The notes under the pieces: model-generated
What the model was told of the DNA's origin: nothing
The model's input: the letters and a program-made list of their open reading frames with translations, nothing else
Databases searched by the model: none
Program-made: the position numbers and the translations under genes
Shown here: positions 30,250-57,001 of the stretch, piece after piece
Numbering within the stretch: position 1 is the stretch's first letter
Layout of the letters: each line of letters opens with the position of its first letter
DNA from: Patescibacteria group bacterium
Lineage (GTDB): Bacteria > Patescibacteriota > Patescibacteriia > JAXHNJ01
Direction of reading: 5' to 3'
Assembly (NCBI GenBank): GCA_034520665.1
Contig: JAXHNJ010000001.1
Coordinates: 258,579-322,578, forward strand
DNA length: 64,000 nt

Positions 30250-30861
30250 ATGGCGGAATTAACCAAAAAACAGCAAGATATACTAAATTACGTAGTCAAT
30301 TATATTCAAGACCATGAATACAGTCCTTCTTTTCAGGAAATTGGCCAGAATTTTGGCCTGTCTTCCAAAGCCACGGTTTCAGCCCATGTTCACGCCTTGA
30401 TAAAAAAAGGTTATTTAAGAAAGGTCAAGGGCTTAGCTCGGTCTTTAAACCTGACTAAAAAAGTTTATCAGCAGGGCCAGGCCGTGCAGCTGCCGCTTTT
30501 GGGCTTGATCGCCGCGGGTGAGCCAATTGAAGCTATTGAAGATAATGAAATGGTTTCTGTACCGGCCGGGGTGGTGCAGGACGCCAACTCTTATGTTTTA
30601 AAAGTAAAAGGGCAGTCCATGATTGAAGAAGGTATACTGGATGGTGATTATGTGGTAGTGGAAAGGAATTTTTATCCGCAAAACGGAGACGTGGTAGTGG
30701 CTTTGCTGGATAATGAATATGCCACCTTGAAAAAATATTTTCGTGAGAAAAACCGCATTCGCCTGCAGCCGGCTAATAAAACCATGAAACCAATTTTTGC
30801 CAAGAATCCGGCTATCCAGGGCATTGTCCGGGGCATTTACCGGGTCTTTTCTCATGCGTAA
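30250..30861 (+). CDS. lexA: LexA repressor (S24 peptidase)
   Basis: N-terminal winged helix-turn-helix. Cleavage-site region AAGEPIEA. Catalytic Ser within GQSM, and Lys further downstream. Confidence 0.85.
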   Translation: MAELTKKQQDILNYVVNYIQDHEYSPSFQEIGQNFGLSSKATVSAHVHALIKKGYLRKVKGLARSLNLTKKVYQQGQAVQLPLLGLIAAGEPIEAIEDNEMVSVPAGVVQDANSYVLKVKGQSMIEEGILDGDYVVVERNFYPQNGDVVVALLDNEYATLKKYFREKNRIRLQPANKTMKPIFAKNPAIQGIVRGIYRVFSHA

Positions 30862-30919
30862 AGGAAATATAAAGGAAACAGGAAGTGGCAAGACTGAAAA
30901 GTATTATTAATAATCTTTC

Positions 30920-31851
30920 ATGAAAAAATATAATCTTAAGAACCAAGTTCATTTCATCACTATTAATACATATAAAAAATACTGGCTTTTTAAGAAAGAA
31001 AATCTTTGCCAAATAGTAATTGATAATCTAAATTTTTACCGCCGTAAATTTAGTTTTAAATTATTGGGTTACGTAATTATGCCTAATCATCTACATTTAT
31101 TAATCCAATTAAATAAAAAATATAATGATATTTCAAAGGTAATGAGGGATTTTAAGAAATTTACAAGTGTTCAAATTATAAAGCAGTTAATAAAAGAAAA
31201 TGAAAAAGATTTACTTAAGAAATTTTCTATGACTGGAAAAATTTTTAATTATCCCTCTACTCTGGGTACTGCCCGATCCTCAGATCGGGCCGGCTTTCCA
31301 GCTGAAGGCCGAATCTGAGGATTCGGCCTACCCGACTAGTTTTAGAAAGAAGAGAAAATATTCAGTCTGGATGAATGATTTTTACGACTTTAACATCTAT
31401 TCCGAGAATCTTCTACTCTGGGTACTGCCCGATCCTCAGATCGGGCCGGCTTTCCAGCCGAATCTGAGGATTCGGCTTACCCGACTAGTTTTAGAAGGAA
31501 GAGAAAATATTCAGTCTGGATGAATGATTTTTACGATTTTAATATCTATTCCGAGAATTTTCTACTCTGGGTACTGCCCGATCCTCAGATCGGGCTAGTC
31601 TCTCGGCCGAATCTGAGGATTCGGACTACCCGACTAGTTTTAGAAAGAAAAGAAAATATTCAGTCTGGATGAATAATTTTTACGACTTTAATATCTATTC
31701 CGAGAATAAACTAGAGCAAAAACTTAATTATATTCATAATAATCCAGTCAAAGCCAAGATAGTTAAAAAACCTGAGGATTATAAATGGTCTTCTTACAGA
31801 AATTATTATTTGGATGATGATTCAATAATAGAAATTAATCAGTTATTTTAA
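30920..31851 (+). pseudogene. Disrupted IS200/IS605-type (REP-associated) tyrosine transposase gene, interrupted by three tandem 149-156-bp repeats that each carry a GC-rich double hairpin
   Basis: N-terminal part 30920..31318 has the HuH motif (MPNHLHLLIQ). C-terminal part 31669..31851 has the catalytic Tyr region (VWMNDFYDFNIY...YIHNNPVKAKIV...DYKWSSY). The 149-bp repeat is not a multiple of 3, so the frame is broken. Confidence 0.6.
31254..31707 (+). repeat. Three tandem copies (156, 149, 149 bp) of a unit made of a GC-rich palindromic element plus about 75 bp of transposase coding sequence
   Basis: Each unit has the hairpins GCCCGATCCTCAGATCGGGC and CCGAATCTGAGGATTCGG. A fourth partial copy sits at 31928-32143. 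Confidence 0.8.
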
Positions 31852-32160
31852 ATAATTTAAATTCTTAAAATATGGTATTACTAAATATTATTTCTGGGTA
31901 GGCGAAAGCCCTCGCTTTTGCCATACTTTGATGCTTAAAACATTTTCTATGACTGGCAAAATTTTTAATTATCTCTCTACTCTGGGTACTGCCCGATCCT
32001 CAGATTGGGCCGGCTTTCCAGCCGAATCTGAGGATTCGGCCTACCCGACTAGTTTTAGAAAGAAAAGAAAATATTCAGTCTGGATGAATGATTTTTACGA
32101 TTTTAATATCTATTCCGAGCATAAATTTAATAATAGAAATTAATAGACTATAAAAAAAAC

Positions 32161-32409
32161 ATGCACGAAAAAATTAACGAGCCAATAAAAGTTCTAGCTT
32201 CTTTTTTAAAAGGGCAGGTTAGTCCGCTTTCTTTTGTTTGGCAGGGCCGGCGCTATAATCCGACTAAAATTAATTTGGTTCATTCAGAGAGAAAAGGTAA
32301 AGGAAAAATTTATTATTTTTCGGTTTCCGATAATTCTAATTTTTACCGGCTGGCTTTTAATAATGAAAATCTTAACTGGCGCTTGATGGAAATATATTCG
32401 CAAAATTAA
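32161..32409 (+). CDS. hypothetical protein (82 aa)
   Basis: ORF only. Confidence 0.3.
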   Translation: MHEKINEPIKVLASFLKGQVSPLSFVWQGRRYNPTKINLVHSERKGKGKIYYFSVSDNSNFYRLAFNNENLNWRLMEIYSQN

Positions 32410-32420
32410 ATTTTTTAGAT

Positions 32421-32610
32421 AAAAAAAGACCCGGACAACAAACAGGTCTCATAATAATGAAAAGATTTGTCGTCCGGGTTCCCCACATCAAGAAAGAGAA
32501 AATATGAGGGGCAAATTTCCCGTGCCCAGCAGTTTATAGCTCGGCGAACGCCGGCTAAACACGGACGAAAATTCGCCCCCTAGCTCTCTTTCAATAAAAA
32601 TTATTTTAAA
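32421..32610 (-). ncRNA. candidate structured small RNA (about 180 nt) on the minus strand, with its own terminator
   Basis: Minus-strand Rho-independent terminator: 13-bp stem CCCGGACGACAAA/TTTGTTGTCCGGG followed by TCTTTTTTT. Upstream segment has nested long-range pairing (GAGGGGCAAATTTCC with GAAAATTCGCCCCC, and CCGTG with CACGG). A rc-TTGACA sits at about 32645. No ORF. Confidence 0.3.
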
Positions 32611-32880
32611 AAGGGCAAAGTAATTTTATACAAAATAATAATTTTGTCAAGTATTTTTTGGCTACCAAGCTTATTTTTGGCTAATATTAGTTTATTAATA
32701 TCTAAATTCTAAACAAATTTTAAATTACAATATTTTAAACTATAAATTATTTTGATTTTTCGAGAATAGAACCAAATACTTTCATAAGTTTTGTAGATTC
32801 GTTGATTAGTATATTTTTTTTCTCCCACTTGTTGATTTATAGGATTAGTTAACCTTTTTATTATCAACAAAAAGATATCT

Positions 32881-33183
32881 CAAAAATTATCTTACACATT
32901 GATATGAATAGCTATTTTGCTTCTTGTGAACAGCCCCGCACCACTTCTCTTCGGCGCTCAGAGTTGGATGCGGGACGAAGTTTAATTAATTTTATATTTT
33001 TATGACTTCGATTATCTTACATATTGACATGAACAGCTATTTTGCTTCCTGTGAGCAGCCCCGCACCAATTCCTCGTTTTACTCGGAACGATGCGGGACG
33101 AAGTTTAATTAATTTTATATTTTCATGACTTCGATTATCTTACACATTGATATGAACAGCTATTTTGCTTCTTGTGAACAGCA
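32881..33183 (+). repeat. Three tandem 122-bp repeats. Each holds the first ~55 nt of the dinB coding sequence plus an upstream GC-rich hairpin; the third copy is the functional gene start
   Basis: ATGACTTCGATTATCTTACA(C/T)ATTGA(T/C)ATGAACAGCTATTTTGCTTC recurs at 32886, 33003 and 33125. Hairpins CCCGCACC...GATGCGGG lie between copies. 122 is not a multiple of 3; the decoy ATG at 33003 opens a 38-codon frame. Confidence 0.8.
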
Positions 33184-34330
33184 AGCTAATCCTTTTTTAC
33201 GGGGTAGACCGGTCGGAGTTTGCGCTTATTTGTCAGAGCAGGGTTGTATTATTGCTTCGTCCATTGAAGCTAAAAAAAAAGGAGTGAAAACTGGCTGTCG
33301 CGTCAAGGAAGCCAAGCAGCTTTGTCCAGATATTTTTTTAATGGAAAACGAGCCGGCTAAATACCGCAGTATTACTAAAAAAATTTTCTCTATTCTAGCC
33401 GAATATACCGATAAACTAGAGCCTTACAGTATTGACGAGGCTTTTTTAGATCTCACTGGTTGGTCTAAAAACTTTAAACAAGCTAAAGAAAAAGCTAAAG
33501 AAATTAAAGATCGAATAAAGAACGAAGTCGGGGACTGGCTCAAAGCCTCGGTCGGTCTTTCTTACACCCGCTGGCTGGCCAAATTTGCTTCAGACCAGGC
33601 CGATAAAGATAGTATTTTAATAATAAAGAAAGATAATTTAGATAAATTTTTAAAAAGACCCTTAACCAGTGCTTGGGGTATTAATTACCGACTGGAGAGT
33701 AGACTAAAATCTTTGGGTATTTTTAATTTGCTCGATTTAAAAAAATATCCAGTAGCTAATCTAATGCAAGTTCTGGGTCGGCCTGGCTATTATCTCTGGG
33801 CTAATGTTAACGGTCTACCGACAGAAAAAGTAAAAAAACAAAAAGAGCCTAAATCAGTCGGTCATAGCTATTGTTTATACCAAAAATCAAAGGATATCGA
33901 TTATTTATCTTCAGTTTTGCTCAAGCTTTGCGAAAAAACCGGCCGCCGCCTGCGGCTTTTGGAAAAAGAGGCTCACTCAATCAGCTTTGGCTTAAGATTT
34001 AAAAACGGCGGCGGCCTTCATCAGGTAAAGAGAATTAAAAATGGTCTTTTTACCACCAAAAGTATTTTTCGAACTGCTTTAAAGATTATGTCAAAAATTC
34101 ATCTTTATGAAGAAGTTTCTTTTCTAGCCATATCAGTTTCGCACCTGTGGTCAATCAGCCGGCAAATGTCTCTTTTTAAAGATAATCTTAAAGAAAAAGA
34201 GATAAGCTTGGCTATGGACAAAATTAATGATCAATACGGCCAGTACTTGGTTTACTGGGGGAGTATGCACGGCACTGATAAAGTGGCCCGCGACCGCATT
34301 GGCTTTCGTAAAACTGTTAATACAAATTAA
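33125..34330 (+). CDS. dinB: DNA polymerase IV (Y-family, translesion synthesis)
   Basis: N-terminal ILHIDMNSYFASCEQ. Catalytic DE (SIDEAFLDLT). Length and organisation match DinB. Confidence 0.9.
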   Translation: MTSIILHIDMNSYFASCEQQANPFLRGRPVGVCAYLSEQGCIIASSIEAKKKGVKTGCRVKEAKQLCPDIFLMENEPAKYRSITKKIFSILAEYTDKLEPYSIDEAFLDLTGWSKNFKQAKEKAKEIKDRIKNEVGDWLKASVGLSYTRWLAKFASDQADKDSILIIKKDNLDKFLKRPLTSAWGINYRLESRLKSLGIFNLLDLKKYPVANLMQVLGRPGYYLWANVNGLPTEKVKKQKEPKSVGHSYCLYQKSKDIDYLSSVLLKLCEKTGRRLRLLEKEAHSISFGLRFKNGGGLHQVKRIKNGLFTTKSIFRTALKIMSKIHLYEEVSFLAISVSHLWSISRQMSLFKDNLKEKEISLAMDKINDQYGQYLVYWGSMHGTDKVARDRIGFRKTVNTN

Positions 34331-54654: not shown

Positions 54655-55242
54655 ATGAAACGCTGTTTTGTGATAATGTTGGCGGTGATAATTTTAGTAC
54701 CGCTTTCAGTGAAAGCTGAAAAACCGGCTATGGGTCAGTGGGGCTTTACTTATGGCGTTTTCAACAACAATTTTGCCTGCCGTCAAGGGTTGAATGATTT
54801 TCACGTAATGGGAGCCCAATTCTATTTTCCAGTTAACCGGTATGTGGCTTTTGGTCCGAGCGGACTTTATAACGGTGTAGATTCTAGCTGGCCAGAGCTT
54901 TCCCATACGGATGGCTTGAATGTTGATTATTGGCAAACTAGCCTGGATATAAAAATATCCACTTTTCCCTATAAGTTGATTAATCCATTTCTTATTTTTC
55001 ATCTGGGAGCTTACGATCTGGCTCTGGAAAATGAGGGTTTATCAAATATTCAGGTTAATGAGGGCACTCATACTTTTATGGCCGGTACTTTCGGCGTTGA
55101 ATTTTCGTTGGATCAGTTTGTCTTGGGAGCCCGGGCTACGGCTATGACTTTTGAAAAAATAAAATTTGGAGTAAATCCAGGCACAGAAACAGATATAAAT
55201 GTGATTTATCAAGCTTTTCTAGGTTTTCATTATAAGCTTTGA
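54655..55242 (+). CDS. hypothetical secreted protein
   Basis: Signal peptide; Gly/aromatic-rich. SD GAGGAGGTG. Confidence 0.35.
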   Translation: MKRCFVIMLAVIILVPLSVKAEKPAMGQWGFTYGVFNNNFACRQGLNDFHVMGAQFYFPVNRYVAFGPSGLYNGVDSSWPELSHTDGLNVDYWQTSLDIKISTFPYKLINPFLIFHLGAYDLALENEGLSNIQVNEGTHTFMAGTFGVEFSLDQFVLGARATAMTFEKIKFGVNPGTETDINVIYQAFLGFHYKL

Positions 55243-55302
55243 TTTTTTCCTGCTTTCTTCTACTACCCCTGCTTTTTTGAGTAGGGGTTTTTTATTTTAA
55301 TA

Positions 55303-56400
55303 ATTATAAAACGCGGAGATAAATTTTTTACTTACGCAAAAATAAACATCTCTATCCGCGTAGCTGGAGATTTATCTCCAGATTCATCTTTTAAAGCCTA
55401 TTAATTTTTCTTTTAGTCTCATCATTCCGATAATAATTACGATAACCTGAATATTTATAATCTTTGGGGTTTTTAAAGCTTTTATAAAAGACTCTATTAT
55501 TTTATCCGCGAGAAGAACTGGTCCCCAGACCGGTTCTGACAATATATTTAATAAGCTCAGACTTCTTGGTAAATTAGAGATTTAATAATCTATTTTGCTC
55601 GAGAAGGTTGGATCTCCTGATCCAACCGAATAAGGTGACGCGGATCAGAAGATCCGCGCTTCTCGGGTAATTTTAAGGGCTTCCTTGGCAGTTTGTTTTA
55701 TACTAGGTAGTTTCCAATGGCTTTTTTATTCCAAACCCACCACCAAAACCTTACTAGCTGCTATAACCATAACCAATTAGCAAAAAAGAGGGTTTTGGGC
55801 CGAGCCGCTAGTTTGGTTATTAGGCTGAGTCAATGGTTTTTTATTCCAAACCCACAACCAAAACCTTACTAGCTGCTATAACCATAACTAATTAGCAAAA
55901 CATAAATCGCCGGATAAATCCGGCGCCAGGCTATTAAATAATATAAAATATAATTTGGTGCAACATTCATATGGCGATATTTTAAAAAAGGTTTTTTCGC
56001 GAGAAGAACTGGTCCCCAGACCGGTTCTGGCAATATATTTACTAAGCTCAGACTTCTCGGTAAATTAGAGATTTAATAATCTATTTTTCTCGAGAAGGTT
56101 GGATCTCCTGATCCAACCGAATAAGGTGACGCGGATCAGGAGATCCGCGCTTCTCGGGTAATTTTAAGGGCTTCCTTGCCAGCTTGTTTTATACTAGGTA
56201 GATGCGGTGCGGGCCATGACCCGCCTCTAGGCCTGGTTCATTAATATTAAAAATAAATTTAAACAAAAGCATAATATTTGAATATTTAATATATAGCGGA
56301 AATAAAGATTCCCGCCTAGGCGATTTTATTTAAACGCGAAAATAAATCTTTTGCCTACGCCAAAACAAACATCTTTACCACGTCGGTGGAGATTTATCTC
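55303..56400. repeat. about 1.1-kb non-coding nested direct-repeat region: R1 – A(207 bp) – B(70 bp) – B' – A' – R1'
   Basis: A 55504-55710 and A' 55996-56201 are more than 95% identical with multiple hairpins. B 55727-55795 and B' 55833-55905 are CA-rich. R1 55303-55392 and R1' 56330-56400 contain the GGAGATTTATCTCC palindrome. Confidence 0.8.
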
Positions 56401-56677
56401 TTTTTTAGGAAGAGTAAGGATTTTCACTGTAATATAGACAAAGATGGAAAGCTTGCTTGCCAAGCCTCTCTTTAGGTCACTACTTCAGAGGGTAAAATTC
56501 GCCCCAAATTATGAAAGGAAAATAGCTTACCGGCTATGATCTAAGAGCATATAAACAGAAAATCTTGCCTTCAAGCCGTAGTTTCCCGTAGGGAGGCAAG
56601 GCTTGACAGAATTAATATTTTGTGTAAAATAATAATTAATTAGTTTTTAGCGTTCTTTATAAAAAAGAGTTTTTATT

Positions 56678-57001
56678 ATGATAAAATCATCAGCAAAAAT
56701 TGGTAAAGATTGTATTGAAATAATAAATACTGATTTCGCTGGATTGGAAATTAATCTTAACCCCCAAAAAACAACAATTGGAAAATCCATTAAAAATAAT
56801 ATATGTTTAGATGATCCTTTGATTTCTGATAAACAGGCTGTTATTTTTCGGAAAAACAGAATTTTCTATTTGGAAGTTATTAATTTTGAAAATAAAGTTT
56901 TTGTTAATAATAATGTAGTTGATAAAAAATATTTATTAGCAAACGGAGATATAATTAAAATTGGTAAATTTGAATTATTATTTAAATCAATTTTTTCTTA
57001 G
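56678..57001 (+). CDS. FHA domain protein
   Basis: TIGKS ... ISDKQAVI ... GDIIKIG core FHA pattern. Confidence 0.6.
   Translation: MIKSSAKIGKDCIEIINTDFAGLEINLNPQKTTIGKSIKNNICLDDPLISDKQAVIFRKNRIFYLEVINFENKVFVNNNVVDKKYLLANGDIIKIGKFELLFKSIFS

Follow-up and report, generated by a model that had tools for sequence, protein, structure and literature searches.

REPIN-RAYT systems are known from Pseudomonas and the Enterobacteriaceae (PMC3116915, PMC3337134, PMC5581495). Their transposases (REP-associated tyrosine transposases, RAYTs) have been described as single-copy domesticated enzymes flanked by the doublets of repetitive extragenic palindromes (REPs) that they disperse (PMC3337134, PMC5581495), and a structure is available for TnpA-REP from E. 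coli (4ER8, PMC3479197). RAYTs and REP doublets occur in association, and REPINs frequently form tandem clusters (PMC3337134, PMC5581495); these clusters are the commonest higher-order arrangement, and the mechanism that produces them is not known (PMC3337134). Here we describe a repeat-rich region of 1,296 nt (positions 55306–56601) in a 64 kb stretch of DNA, the window, from a Patescibacteria metagenome-assembled genome (MAG, GC 33.6%). This region is very probably an insertion specific to this lineage, within which lie the remnants of a RAYT gene of the HUH/Y1 family on the minus strand, with putative REP doublets inside what was once its open reading frame (ORF).

The region is built from nested direct repeats. 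Repeats A (55500–55710) and A' (55992–56201) share 95.7% identity over 211 nt, and B (55715–55785) and B' (55831–55900) share 95.8% over 71 nt, which bears out the near-identical repeats of the original prediction; every hairpin listed there is also present. The outer pair, R1 (55309–55378) and R1' (56332–56400), had been given as 90-bp repeats that each contain a perfect palindrome. We measured about 70 nt at 83% identity, and the palindrome is perfect in R1 (GGAGATTTATCTCC, 14 nt) but not in R1', which reads GGAGATTTATCTCT. The extent of 1.1 kb assigned earlier was too small, since the unusual stretch runs from 55306 to 56601. The second copy lies 491 nt away for A and 115 nt away for B, and within A two units, each of a gene piece plus a doublet, lie 91 nt apart. 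No further copy of A, B, or R1 occurs anywhere else in the window. The closing signature CGAGAAG...CTTCTYGG was observed four times (0.00 expected) and GGATC-N4-GATCC also four times (0.02 expected). The strong GC-rich hairpins of the window are concentrated at two places, namely this region and 31.3–32.1 kb.

The second of these places is the locus of a broken RAYT gene (RAYT#1). A homology search with the reconstructed RAYT#1 led to P0225, an intact RAYT of 200 residues reported on the same 455,760-bp contig. Together with P0253, an intact RAYT encoded on a contig from a different sample (L157), this protein provides the reference for the following features.

55306–56601, no strand assigned: lineage-specific insert of 1,296 nt, absent in the relatives L003, L004, and L005.
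55391–55501, minus strand: putative RAYT C-terminal remnant, NNRVFYKSFKNPKDYKYSGYRNYYRNDETKRKINRL followed by a stop codon; this is the 116-nt AT-rich "spacer" between R1 and A.
55500–55710, minus strand: repeat A, putative central RAYT loop, collinear with P0225, containing TAKEALKIT (55692–55666), module 2, IIKSLIYQE (55589–55563), and module 1.
55599–55666, minus strand: module 2 of A, a complete REP doublet homologous to the P0253 doublet, CGAGAAG-C-GCGGATC-ttct-GATCCGC ... GTTGGATC-agga-GATCCAAC-CTTCTCG; the minus strand reads EKRGSSDPRHLIRLDQEIQPSR.
55509–55569, minus strand: module 1 of A, a REP doublet minus one hairpin, matching the module of P0225; the minus strand reads SELIKYIVRTGLGTSSS and the plus strand REELVPRPVL.
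55992–56201, minus strand: repeat A', putative second copy of the RAYT central part with matches to P0225 and L157, containing module 1 (56000–56060; SELSKYIARTGLGTSSS at 56052–56002), IIKSLIYRE (56080–56054), and module 2 (56090–56157).

The C-terminal remnant is recognizable by several independent comparisons. A RAYT profile made from about 100 homologues matches positions 55501–55379 of the minus strand with 22.5 bits (E = 3e-9), aligning NNRVFYKSFKNPKDYKYSGYRNYYRNDETKRKINRL with the consensus nNPvragLvekpedYkYSSyrnYylddeslieidk. When all six frames of the window were scanned, no RAYT-profile match was obtained other than this stretch and the RAYT#1 locus. The profile match spans only the last ~36 residues; residues ~83–118 were matched pairwise. 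A profile of the P0225 family scores the same remnant with 17 bits, as compared to a maximum of 2.4 in 60 shuffles. By tblastn, residues 97–199 of P0225 align with 55573–55394 on the minus strand (E = 1e-5) with residues 121–163 deleted, and P0121 also finds the C-terminal remnant (E = 1e-4). At the DNA level, the remnant is 81% identical over 37 nt to the C-terminus of the RAYT gene in L157.

The remaining pieces extend this similarity into the repeats. Read along the minus strand, TAKEALKIT-REA is followed by module 2, IIKSLIY(Q/R)E, and module 1, and the C-terminus follows copy A only. TAKEALKIT-REA corresponds to TAKQIIKSLNH-REA in P0225, and the pieces are collinear with ...TAKQIIKSLNH-REALAPRPELSKYIARTGLGTGSS... 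of this protein. The linker (IIKSLIYQE in A, IIKSLIYRE in A') resembles IIKSLNHRE of P0225, with seven of nine residues matching in A'. These findings qualify the description of the region as gene-free: it stands as far as intact genes are concerned, but the minus strand bears recognizable remnants of a transposase gene.

Repeat A is, as judged by these alignments, the central loop of the RAYT gene, and this loop is made largely of REP doublets. Module 2 can be written as two facing REPs, CGAGAAG-[GTTGGATC-tcct-GATCCAAC] and CGAGAAG-C-[GCGGATC-ttct-GATCCGC], and in A its minus-strand translation is EKRGS(S/P)DPRHLIRLDQEIQPSR. The doublet inside the ORF of P0253 (DNA sequence: GAGAAG-CGCGGATC-tcct-GATCCGCG...CGGGATC-agga-GATCCCG-CCTTCTC) is 82–83% identical to module 2 over 65–70 nt (E = 3e-10 to 5e-13), with 17 of 23 encoded residues matching. 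For the reverse complement of A', the match with L157 is 83% over 70 nt (E = 5e-13), where feet, tops, and loops are identical and two pairs are compensatory. Across A, A', L157, and the metagenomic locus L143, 98.9% of the module 2 pairing is preserved and six pairs have changed on both sides, a result reached by one of 500 shuffles; the GGATC tops in L143 were enforced by the search pattern, and the remaining positions were free. The two arms are 29 nt long, 83% complementary, and 18 nt apart, and in A' the tops of hairpins 1 and 2 are exact reverse complements of each other. Module 2 is, then, a putative REPIN doublet composed of inverted REP palindromes with a short spacer that could fold into one long hairpin. 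The physical association of REPIN and RAYT was also found, but inside the ORF instead of flanking it, both in A/A' and in intact genes of L155, L156, L157, and L159.

Module 1 connects the insert with P0225. In A', 15 of 17 residues are identical to P0225 residues 101–117, and a tblastn search matched P0225 residues 100–120 to 56055–55993 on the minus strand (76% identity, E = 2e-4). The module 1 peptide SEL(I/S)KYI(V/A)RTGLGTSSS aligns with PELSKYIARTGLGTGSS of P0225, the complete module of which is REALAPRPEL-SKYI-ARTGLGTGSS. In the DNA of L159, the intact form of this module type comprises two hairpins with the same CGAGAAG/CTTCTC feet. REALAPRPEL..ARAGLG is encoded in P0241–P0246 and P0249, and palindrome-encoded in-frame segments occur at the same place in P0253 (SEKRGSPDPRGFVWRDQEIPPSRE) and P0255 (SDPRGLARLDQEIQPSQ). 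Alignment of P0225 with E. coli TnpA-REP (4ER8) gives two aligned blocks with ~48 extra residues exactly at the module position, and in the P0225 family this loop between HUH and Tyr carries one or two in-frame REP doublets. The feet fall into different types: CGAGAAG is constant in A-type doublets, those of RAYT#1 carry GGGTAC/GGGTAG, and the R1 hairpin carries GTAG.

Intact RAYT genes with in-frame doublets inside their ORFs were observed in four Patescibacteria contigs (L155, 1025–1627; L156, 647–1309; L157, 2037–2651; L159, 4001–4618). Their doublets have constant feet and covarying stems, with 97–100% of the positions paired and five to six compensatory pairs. The genes themselves sit tightly between housekeeping genes without flanking REPs. 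Dispersed or extragenic doublets were detected neither beyond the two RAYT loci of the window nor outside the RAYT ORFs of L157 or L159. We found no description of RAYTs in Patescibacteria or of REPs inside RAYT ORFs, which is weak evidence of novelty because our coverage of the literature was incomplete.

Several observations weigh against a decayed RAYT gene as the source of the insert. Profile searches in six frames of 55243–56677 detected no similarity to the HUH motif or the N-terminal half of a RAYT. About half of the insert, consisting of B/B', the spacers S2 and S3, R1/R1', and the right-hand 200 nt (56401–56601), has no detectable protein or DNA relative. No C-terminal remnant follows A', so the order of the pieces is unlike a simple tandem gene duplication. 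The link between module 1 and P0225 rests on 17–21 residues plus context. Since REPs are palindromic, both strands yield REP-like peptides, and this property weakens short peptide matches when taken alone. The search for further copies covered 64 kb of the genome. Two differences between A and A' in predicted stems are compatible with G-U pairing on the plus strand only, as for a plus-strand RNA (n = 2, not significant). Finally, the copy number and order of A and B rest on one assembly because Logan contigs lack the interior of the region. With these points considered, a RAYT origin remains very probable, although this copy is predicted to be a dead pseudogene and not a functional family member, since the HUH half and the catalytic tyrosine are lost; the remnant also contains stop codons and frameshifts. 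Of the tyrosine motif (Y-I-x-x-N-P), the tyrosine of YIHNNP lies inside the deleted residues 121–163, and NN(R)V is left with a stop codon before it.

The Logan contigs (k = 31) of run SRR26473340 end at 55383 and restart at 56270, leaving 886 nt (55384–56269) uncovered. Neither break coincides with a repeat boundary, and the left one lies ~8 nt past the stop codon of the dead RAYT. Low coverage of AT-rich DNA could account for the gap, as could a second haplotype or copy that shares exactly this 886-nt segment. As the k = 31 assembly of the same run stops and restarts inside the region, we considered whether the nested arrangement could in part be an artifact of repeat copies that were mis-joined or mis-counted. 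We judge such an error quite unlikely. Both flanks are 100% identical to Logan contigs. A and A' differ at seven to eight spaced positions with a longest identical run of ~50 nt, so that assemblers with larger k can separate them. The content is also biologically coherent, in that a collinear RAYT remnant runs from A into the unique spacer.

The same predicted structures could also be read as RNA. The original prediction had proposed duplicated small RNAs, according to which A/A', and perhaps B/B', would be small-RNA genes on the plus strand. The stable predicted fold with a three-way junction and complementary loops (UCCU/AGGA), the two stem substitutions that keep pairing only as plus-strand RNA, and a weak promoter-like site at 55472–55500 are consistent with this idea. 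Against it, Rfam 15 gave no match in the whole window at gathering thresholds, and with relaxed thresholds on 55200–56700 the best hit scored 24 bits against a threshold of 45 and belonged to a plant-virus element, which we regard as noise. Searches of the relatives and of metagenomic look-alikes with Rfam gave nothing credible, and ARAGORN found no tRNA or tmRNA genes. The Rfam check suggested at the outset therefore lends no support to a cluster of noncoding RNAs. Furthermore, the same hairpins occur elsewhere in intact RAYT ORFs on the opposite strand, so that the structures are explained as REP palindromes of protein-coding genes; the sequence upstream of A is not conserved upstream of A', and the closest relative lacks the region. 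Small-RNA genes are for these reasons a very improbable interpretation.

A RAYT gene in decay also agrees with the comparison to related genomes. Upstream of the insert lie genes for NiFe-hydrogenase subunits, HypA, and a 195-residue protein; downstream follow an FHA gene, pgk, eno, and two gpmI genes. The location between hydrogenase/HypA genes and the FHA-pgk-eno block was thus described correctly. In L003, the closest relative found (PGK identity 85%), the spacer between the genes for the 195-residue protein and the FHA protein measures 147 nt. The junctions are exact, with window position 55305 corresponding to L003 2362 and 56602 to L003 2364, and nothing lies between them in L003; the left boundary of the insert is uncertain by a few AT-rich bases, and one empty site was compared. 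The more distant relatives and outgroups L004 and L005 are likewise without the insert. Because L003, L004, and L005 all lack the region, parsimony favors an insertion in this lineage. Hairpins are found close to both junctions, and neither inverted terminal repeats nor a target-site duplication were seen in the junction sequences and alignments (one empty site). The insert is bordered by two conserved elements.

55265–55288: conserved terminator of the gene for the 195-residue protein, left flank of the insert.
56603–56630: conserved FHA promoter TTGACA-16-TAAAAT, right flank of the insert.

This position exactly between a terminator and a promoter raises the possibility that the hairpin cluster was co-opted as a cis element between operons, acting as a terminator, insulator, or mRNA stabilizer as has been described for some enterobacterial REPs and BIMEs (bacterial interspersed mosaic elements). 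Seven terminator-like sites were counted (1.8 expected), and folding predictions give a very stable structure (z = -4.8 on the plus strand and -3.6 on the minus strand). However, the nearest relative makes do with the 147-nt spacer containing the same terminator and promoter, most hairpins of the insert have no T-run, and conservation is limited to the RAYT-derived parts. We therefore consider a co-opted cis element unlikely.

A function in replication or partition, which had also been proposed, has next to no probability. Clustered GATC-containing palindromes and AT-rich stretches could be expected of an origin, a terminus, or a partition site. Yet the GC skew is positive throughout the window without inflection, which speaks against a nearby origin or terminus, the large genes on both sides are all on the plus strand with no switch of gene strand, and no DnaA-box-like site is present between 52.6 and 57.9 kb. 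There are also no par or dnaA genes nearby, and relatives do not contain the region. The tests for skew, gene strand, and DnaA boxes refute this candidate.

The RAYT#1 locus (30920–32150) shows how repeats of this kind relate to a RAYT gene. Here, the gene is broken by three tandem units of 147–149 nt that each join a REP doublet to 64 nt of gene sequence, and a fourth, incomplete unit carries an internal deletion (31930–32150). The N-terminal ORF (30920–31318) matches Pfam Y1_Tnp, and the C-terminus is displaced to 31654–31852. The reconstructed protein (30920–31852) scores 118–124 bits over the full length of the NCBIfam RAYT model NF047646 (cutoff 80), and scores higher without the hairpin module, as compared to 30–31 bits on the IS200 equivalog NF033573 (cutoff 55). 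The double hairpin in each unit is laid out like module 2 of A, with GGGTAC-T-[GCCCGATC-ctca-GATCGGGC] on one strand facing GGGTAG-[GCCGAATC-ctca-GATTCGGC] on the other. The window (30250–34330) and L155 (407–3783), which contains an intact orthologue (PGK ~63% identical), share the gene order LexA, RAYT, 82-residue ORF, DinB. Because this synteny is conserved in a distant relative, RAYT#1 looks like a vertically inherited member of an SOS-type cluster.

Next to RAYT#1, at 32886–33181, the first 19 codons of dinB (MTSIILHIDMNSYFASCEQ) and their upstream AT-rich stretch recur at intervals of 123–125 nt, giving three copies in all. A hairpin, CCCCGCAcc[..]gaTGCGGGAC, comes after each of the first two copies; its inner part differs between them and yet pairs, and only copy 3 runs into dinB. 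This triplication is another case of a palindrome beside a tandem duplication of a gene piece.

The nested repeats in the insert (the modules within A, A/A', B/B', and R1/R1') would have arisen by local duplication of units made of a gene piece plus a palindrome. Such duplications may have proceeded by palindrome-stimulated slippage or unequal recombination, or by RAYT nicking and rejoining at the feet. The same process appears to have disrupted RAYT#1 at 30.9–32.1 kb, where its outcome is still visible. As to the hairpins of the insert, they may at most remain substrates of the intact P0225, or affect transcription between the operons incidentally.

The first of these possibilities borders on a reading in which the doublets of A/A' are live non-autonomous mobile DNA of the REPIN or BIME type, copied or excised in trans by P0225, so that the repeats stem from ongoing activity instead of passive decay. 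Both modules have retained intact feet and perfectly paired stems, and the 96% identity of A and A' indicates that the duplication was recent. The residues that encode the feet (RE..SS) are the same in P0225, REPINs are known to form tandem clusters in other systems (PMC3337134), and a second haplotype or copy could explain why the Logan contigs break at 55383 and 56270. On the other hand, the other 62.7 kb of the window contain neither a module copy nor the signature of a foot plus hairpin. The closing-stem signature gave 26 matches in 185,579 representative genomes, which is about the number expected by chance; all were unrelated and none was a true match, the source MAG being outside this collection. 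In the relatives, doublets occur only inside RAYT ORFs and none are dispersed. Ongoing mobility therefore seems rather unlikely, and passive decay of a RAYT gene is the explanation we prefer. The idea of a novel non-autonomous element or composite miniature inverted-repeat transposable element (MITE) was correct insofar as the region is a 1.3 kb insertion whose hairpins are REP-type palindromes belonging to a transposase system. It does not have the terminal inverted repeats of a MITE, however, and elements of its kind were already known. In short, the repeat region is real, but a decaying element of a familiar type accounts for it.

The other parts of the insert are as follows.

55309–55381, no strand assigned: R1, left-end repeat with a REP-like hairpin and a GTAG foot, GTAG-CTGGAGAT-tt-ATCTCCAG at 55360–55381; no relative found elsewhere.
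55715–55785, no strand assigned: repeat B, 96% identical to B'; no protein or DNA relative found.
55831–55900, no strand assigned: repeat B', 96% identical to B.
55908–55925, no strand assigned: GC-rich hairpin CGCCGGA-taaa-TCCGGCG, terminator-like on the minus strand.
56332–56400, no strand assigned: R1', diverged copy of R1 (83% identity) with a degraded palindrome.
56401–56601, no strand assigned: right-hand segment with hairpins at 56451–56465 and CTTGCCT...AGGCAAG, the latter ending 2 nt from the junction; no relative found.

The stretch before B' (55810–55840) weakly resembles the end of A (score 27, as compared to 16.4 ± 3.5 in shuffles). Further weak repeats (after R1 versus R1', before A versus A', and after A versus A') did not rise above shuffled controls. 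Repeat B had appeared by eye to resemble a decayed HUH region of the gene, but this assignment found no profile support and was dropped. Small proteins were also considered. ORFs longer than 40 codons do exist, contrary to what had been stated, with lengths of 45, 51, 52, and 54 codons. Nevertheless, none of the 17 ORFs of 20–54 codons is convincing, and public assemblies list no gene for any of them. A tiny ORF, MVIAASKVLVVGLE, in the reverse complement of B shows one synonymous difference between the copies, too little to judge. Finally, tblastn with the additional ORFs found between FHA and pgk in L004 and L005 detected no decayed neighbor genes.

Two observations concern the spacers of relatives. 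Window positions 56484–56528 show a weak resemblance over 45 nt to the FHA-pgk spacer of L003 (2810–2855; TTCAGAGGGTAAA ... AAATAGCTT). A perfect palindrome of 32 nt, TTAACCCCGCCCTTCGCGAAGGGCGGGGTTAA, is present with 95% identity in L003 (2887–2923) and L004 (8261–8297), in non-orthologous intergenic spacers of two distant relatives. This distribution suggests that TTAACCCCGCCCTTCGCGAAGGGCGGGGTTAA may be another small mobile palindrome in the lineage.

Searches for the insert in larger collections returned no copy. Distant-mode blastn with the whole insert found no match in phage and plasmid collections, and the closing-stem signature gave one chance match in GC-rich coding DNA among viral contigs. 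Scanning of metagenome contigs with the double GGATC-N4-GATCC signature produced no close homologue of A among the matches listed, which included L143 and other REP-doublet families. L071, L114, and L143 are doublets with GTAG feet and the same GGATC-N4-GATCC tops, and L143 shares 26 nt with hairpin 2 of A. Another GC-rich family resembling REP doublets, ttGCTC-N5-GGATCGCCAGATCC ... GGATCTGGCGATCC-N5-GAGCaa, is abundant in many environments (L039, L042, L043, L048, L054, L055, L058, L060–L062, L068, L078, and others); it has no Rfam match, and its strings were not found in the literature searched. In the window as a whole, GGCC and CCGG are ~3.5-fold over-represented and most other 4-nt palindromes are 2- to 4-fold under-represented (ACGT 0.27, TCGA 0.34, GTAC 0.35), a bias that hints at restriction-modification pressure.

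For annotation, these results mean that a 1.3-kb noncoding island is very probably an ordinary dead mobile-element gene, and labels such as RNA gene, origin, or regulatory region should be avoided. What makes the repeat region interesting is mainly that it led to REP doublets placed, unusually, inside an ORF. In a more general model, the chances of which we see as evenly balanced, RAYT genes of several Patescibacteria lineages would carry their own in-frame REP doublets in the loop between HUH and Tyr. The feet would be constant (CGAGAAG/CTTCTC in the P0225 family, GGGTAC/GTAGGG in the LexA-linked family), the stems would vary with compensation, and no doublets would be flanking or dispersed. 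The same palindromes may drive tandem duplications of gene piece plus doublet that repeatedly kill the gene, leaving wrecks such as this region and RAYT#1. If the in-ORF doublets are under selection, the transposase may bind the hairpin in its own gene or mRNA (autoregulation), or the gene may act as a safe harbor or master copy of its REPIN. Work on these systems has yet to explain the maintenance of the REPIN-RAYT association and the formation of tandem REPIN clusters. The ultrasmall genomes of Patescibacteria have doublets in the RAYT frame that are structurally conserved and apparently undispersed, with tandem duplications at two loci. If this picture is confirmed genome-wide, these genomes would provide a minimal natural system for the study of RAYT-REP function and palindrome-driven local amplification.

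Among known systems, IS200/IS605 elements and palindrome-associated transposable elements (PATEs) share with this locus a Y1 HUH transposase and presence or absence relative to a close relative; the hairpins near both ends of the insert, and junctions at which no terminal inverted repeats or target-site duplication were seen (one empty site), may also be comparable. In contrast to IS200/IS605, repeated hairpins are located within the central part of the gene and are not confined to the ends, a second identical copy is not known, and RAYT#1 scores below the IS200 equivalog cutoff (31 versus 55 bits) but above the RAYT cutoff. BIMEs, the tandem REP clusters of E. coli (PMC3337134), are similar in their alternating REP-type palindromes with short linkers, in their local amplification in intergenic DNA, and in their location between convergent or consecutive transcription units. 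They differ in that the linkers of the present cluster are coding pieces of a transposase (IIKSL.., TAKEALKIT) and that this cluster is unique in the window, not one of hundreds.

The closest counterpart is the REPIN-RAYT system. The transposase family is the same, as RAYT#1 passes NF047646 and P0225 aligns with the HUH and Tyr blocks of 4ER8. Common to both are also the paired inverted hairpins with a constant 5' foot that are able to fold as one long hairpin, the tandem clusters, and, for RAYT#1, synteny and apparent vertical inheritance. Unlike known systems, this genome contains at least three RAYT loci, two of them damaged, instead of one, and the copy studied here, a predicted pseudogene, occupies a site where the nearest relative has no insert; in this respect it is more like an insertion sequence. 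The foot of the A-type doublets is CGAGAAG, whereas known REPIN feet are GTAG or GTGG. No dispersed extragenic population accompanies the genes in the 64 kb or in the contigs of relatives; instead of flanking the RAYT gene, the doublets lie in frame inside its ORF.

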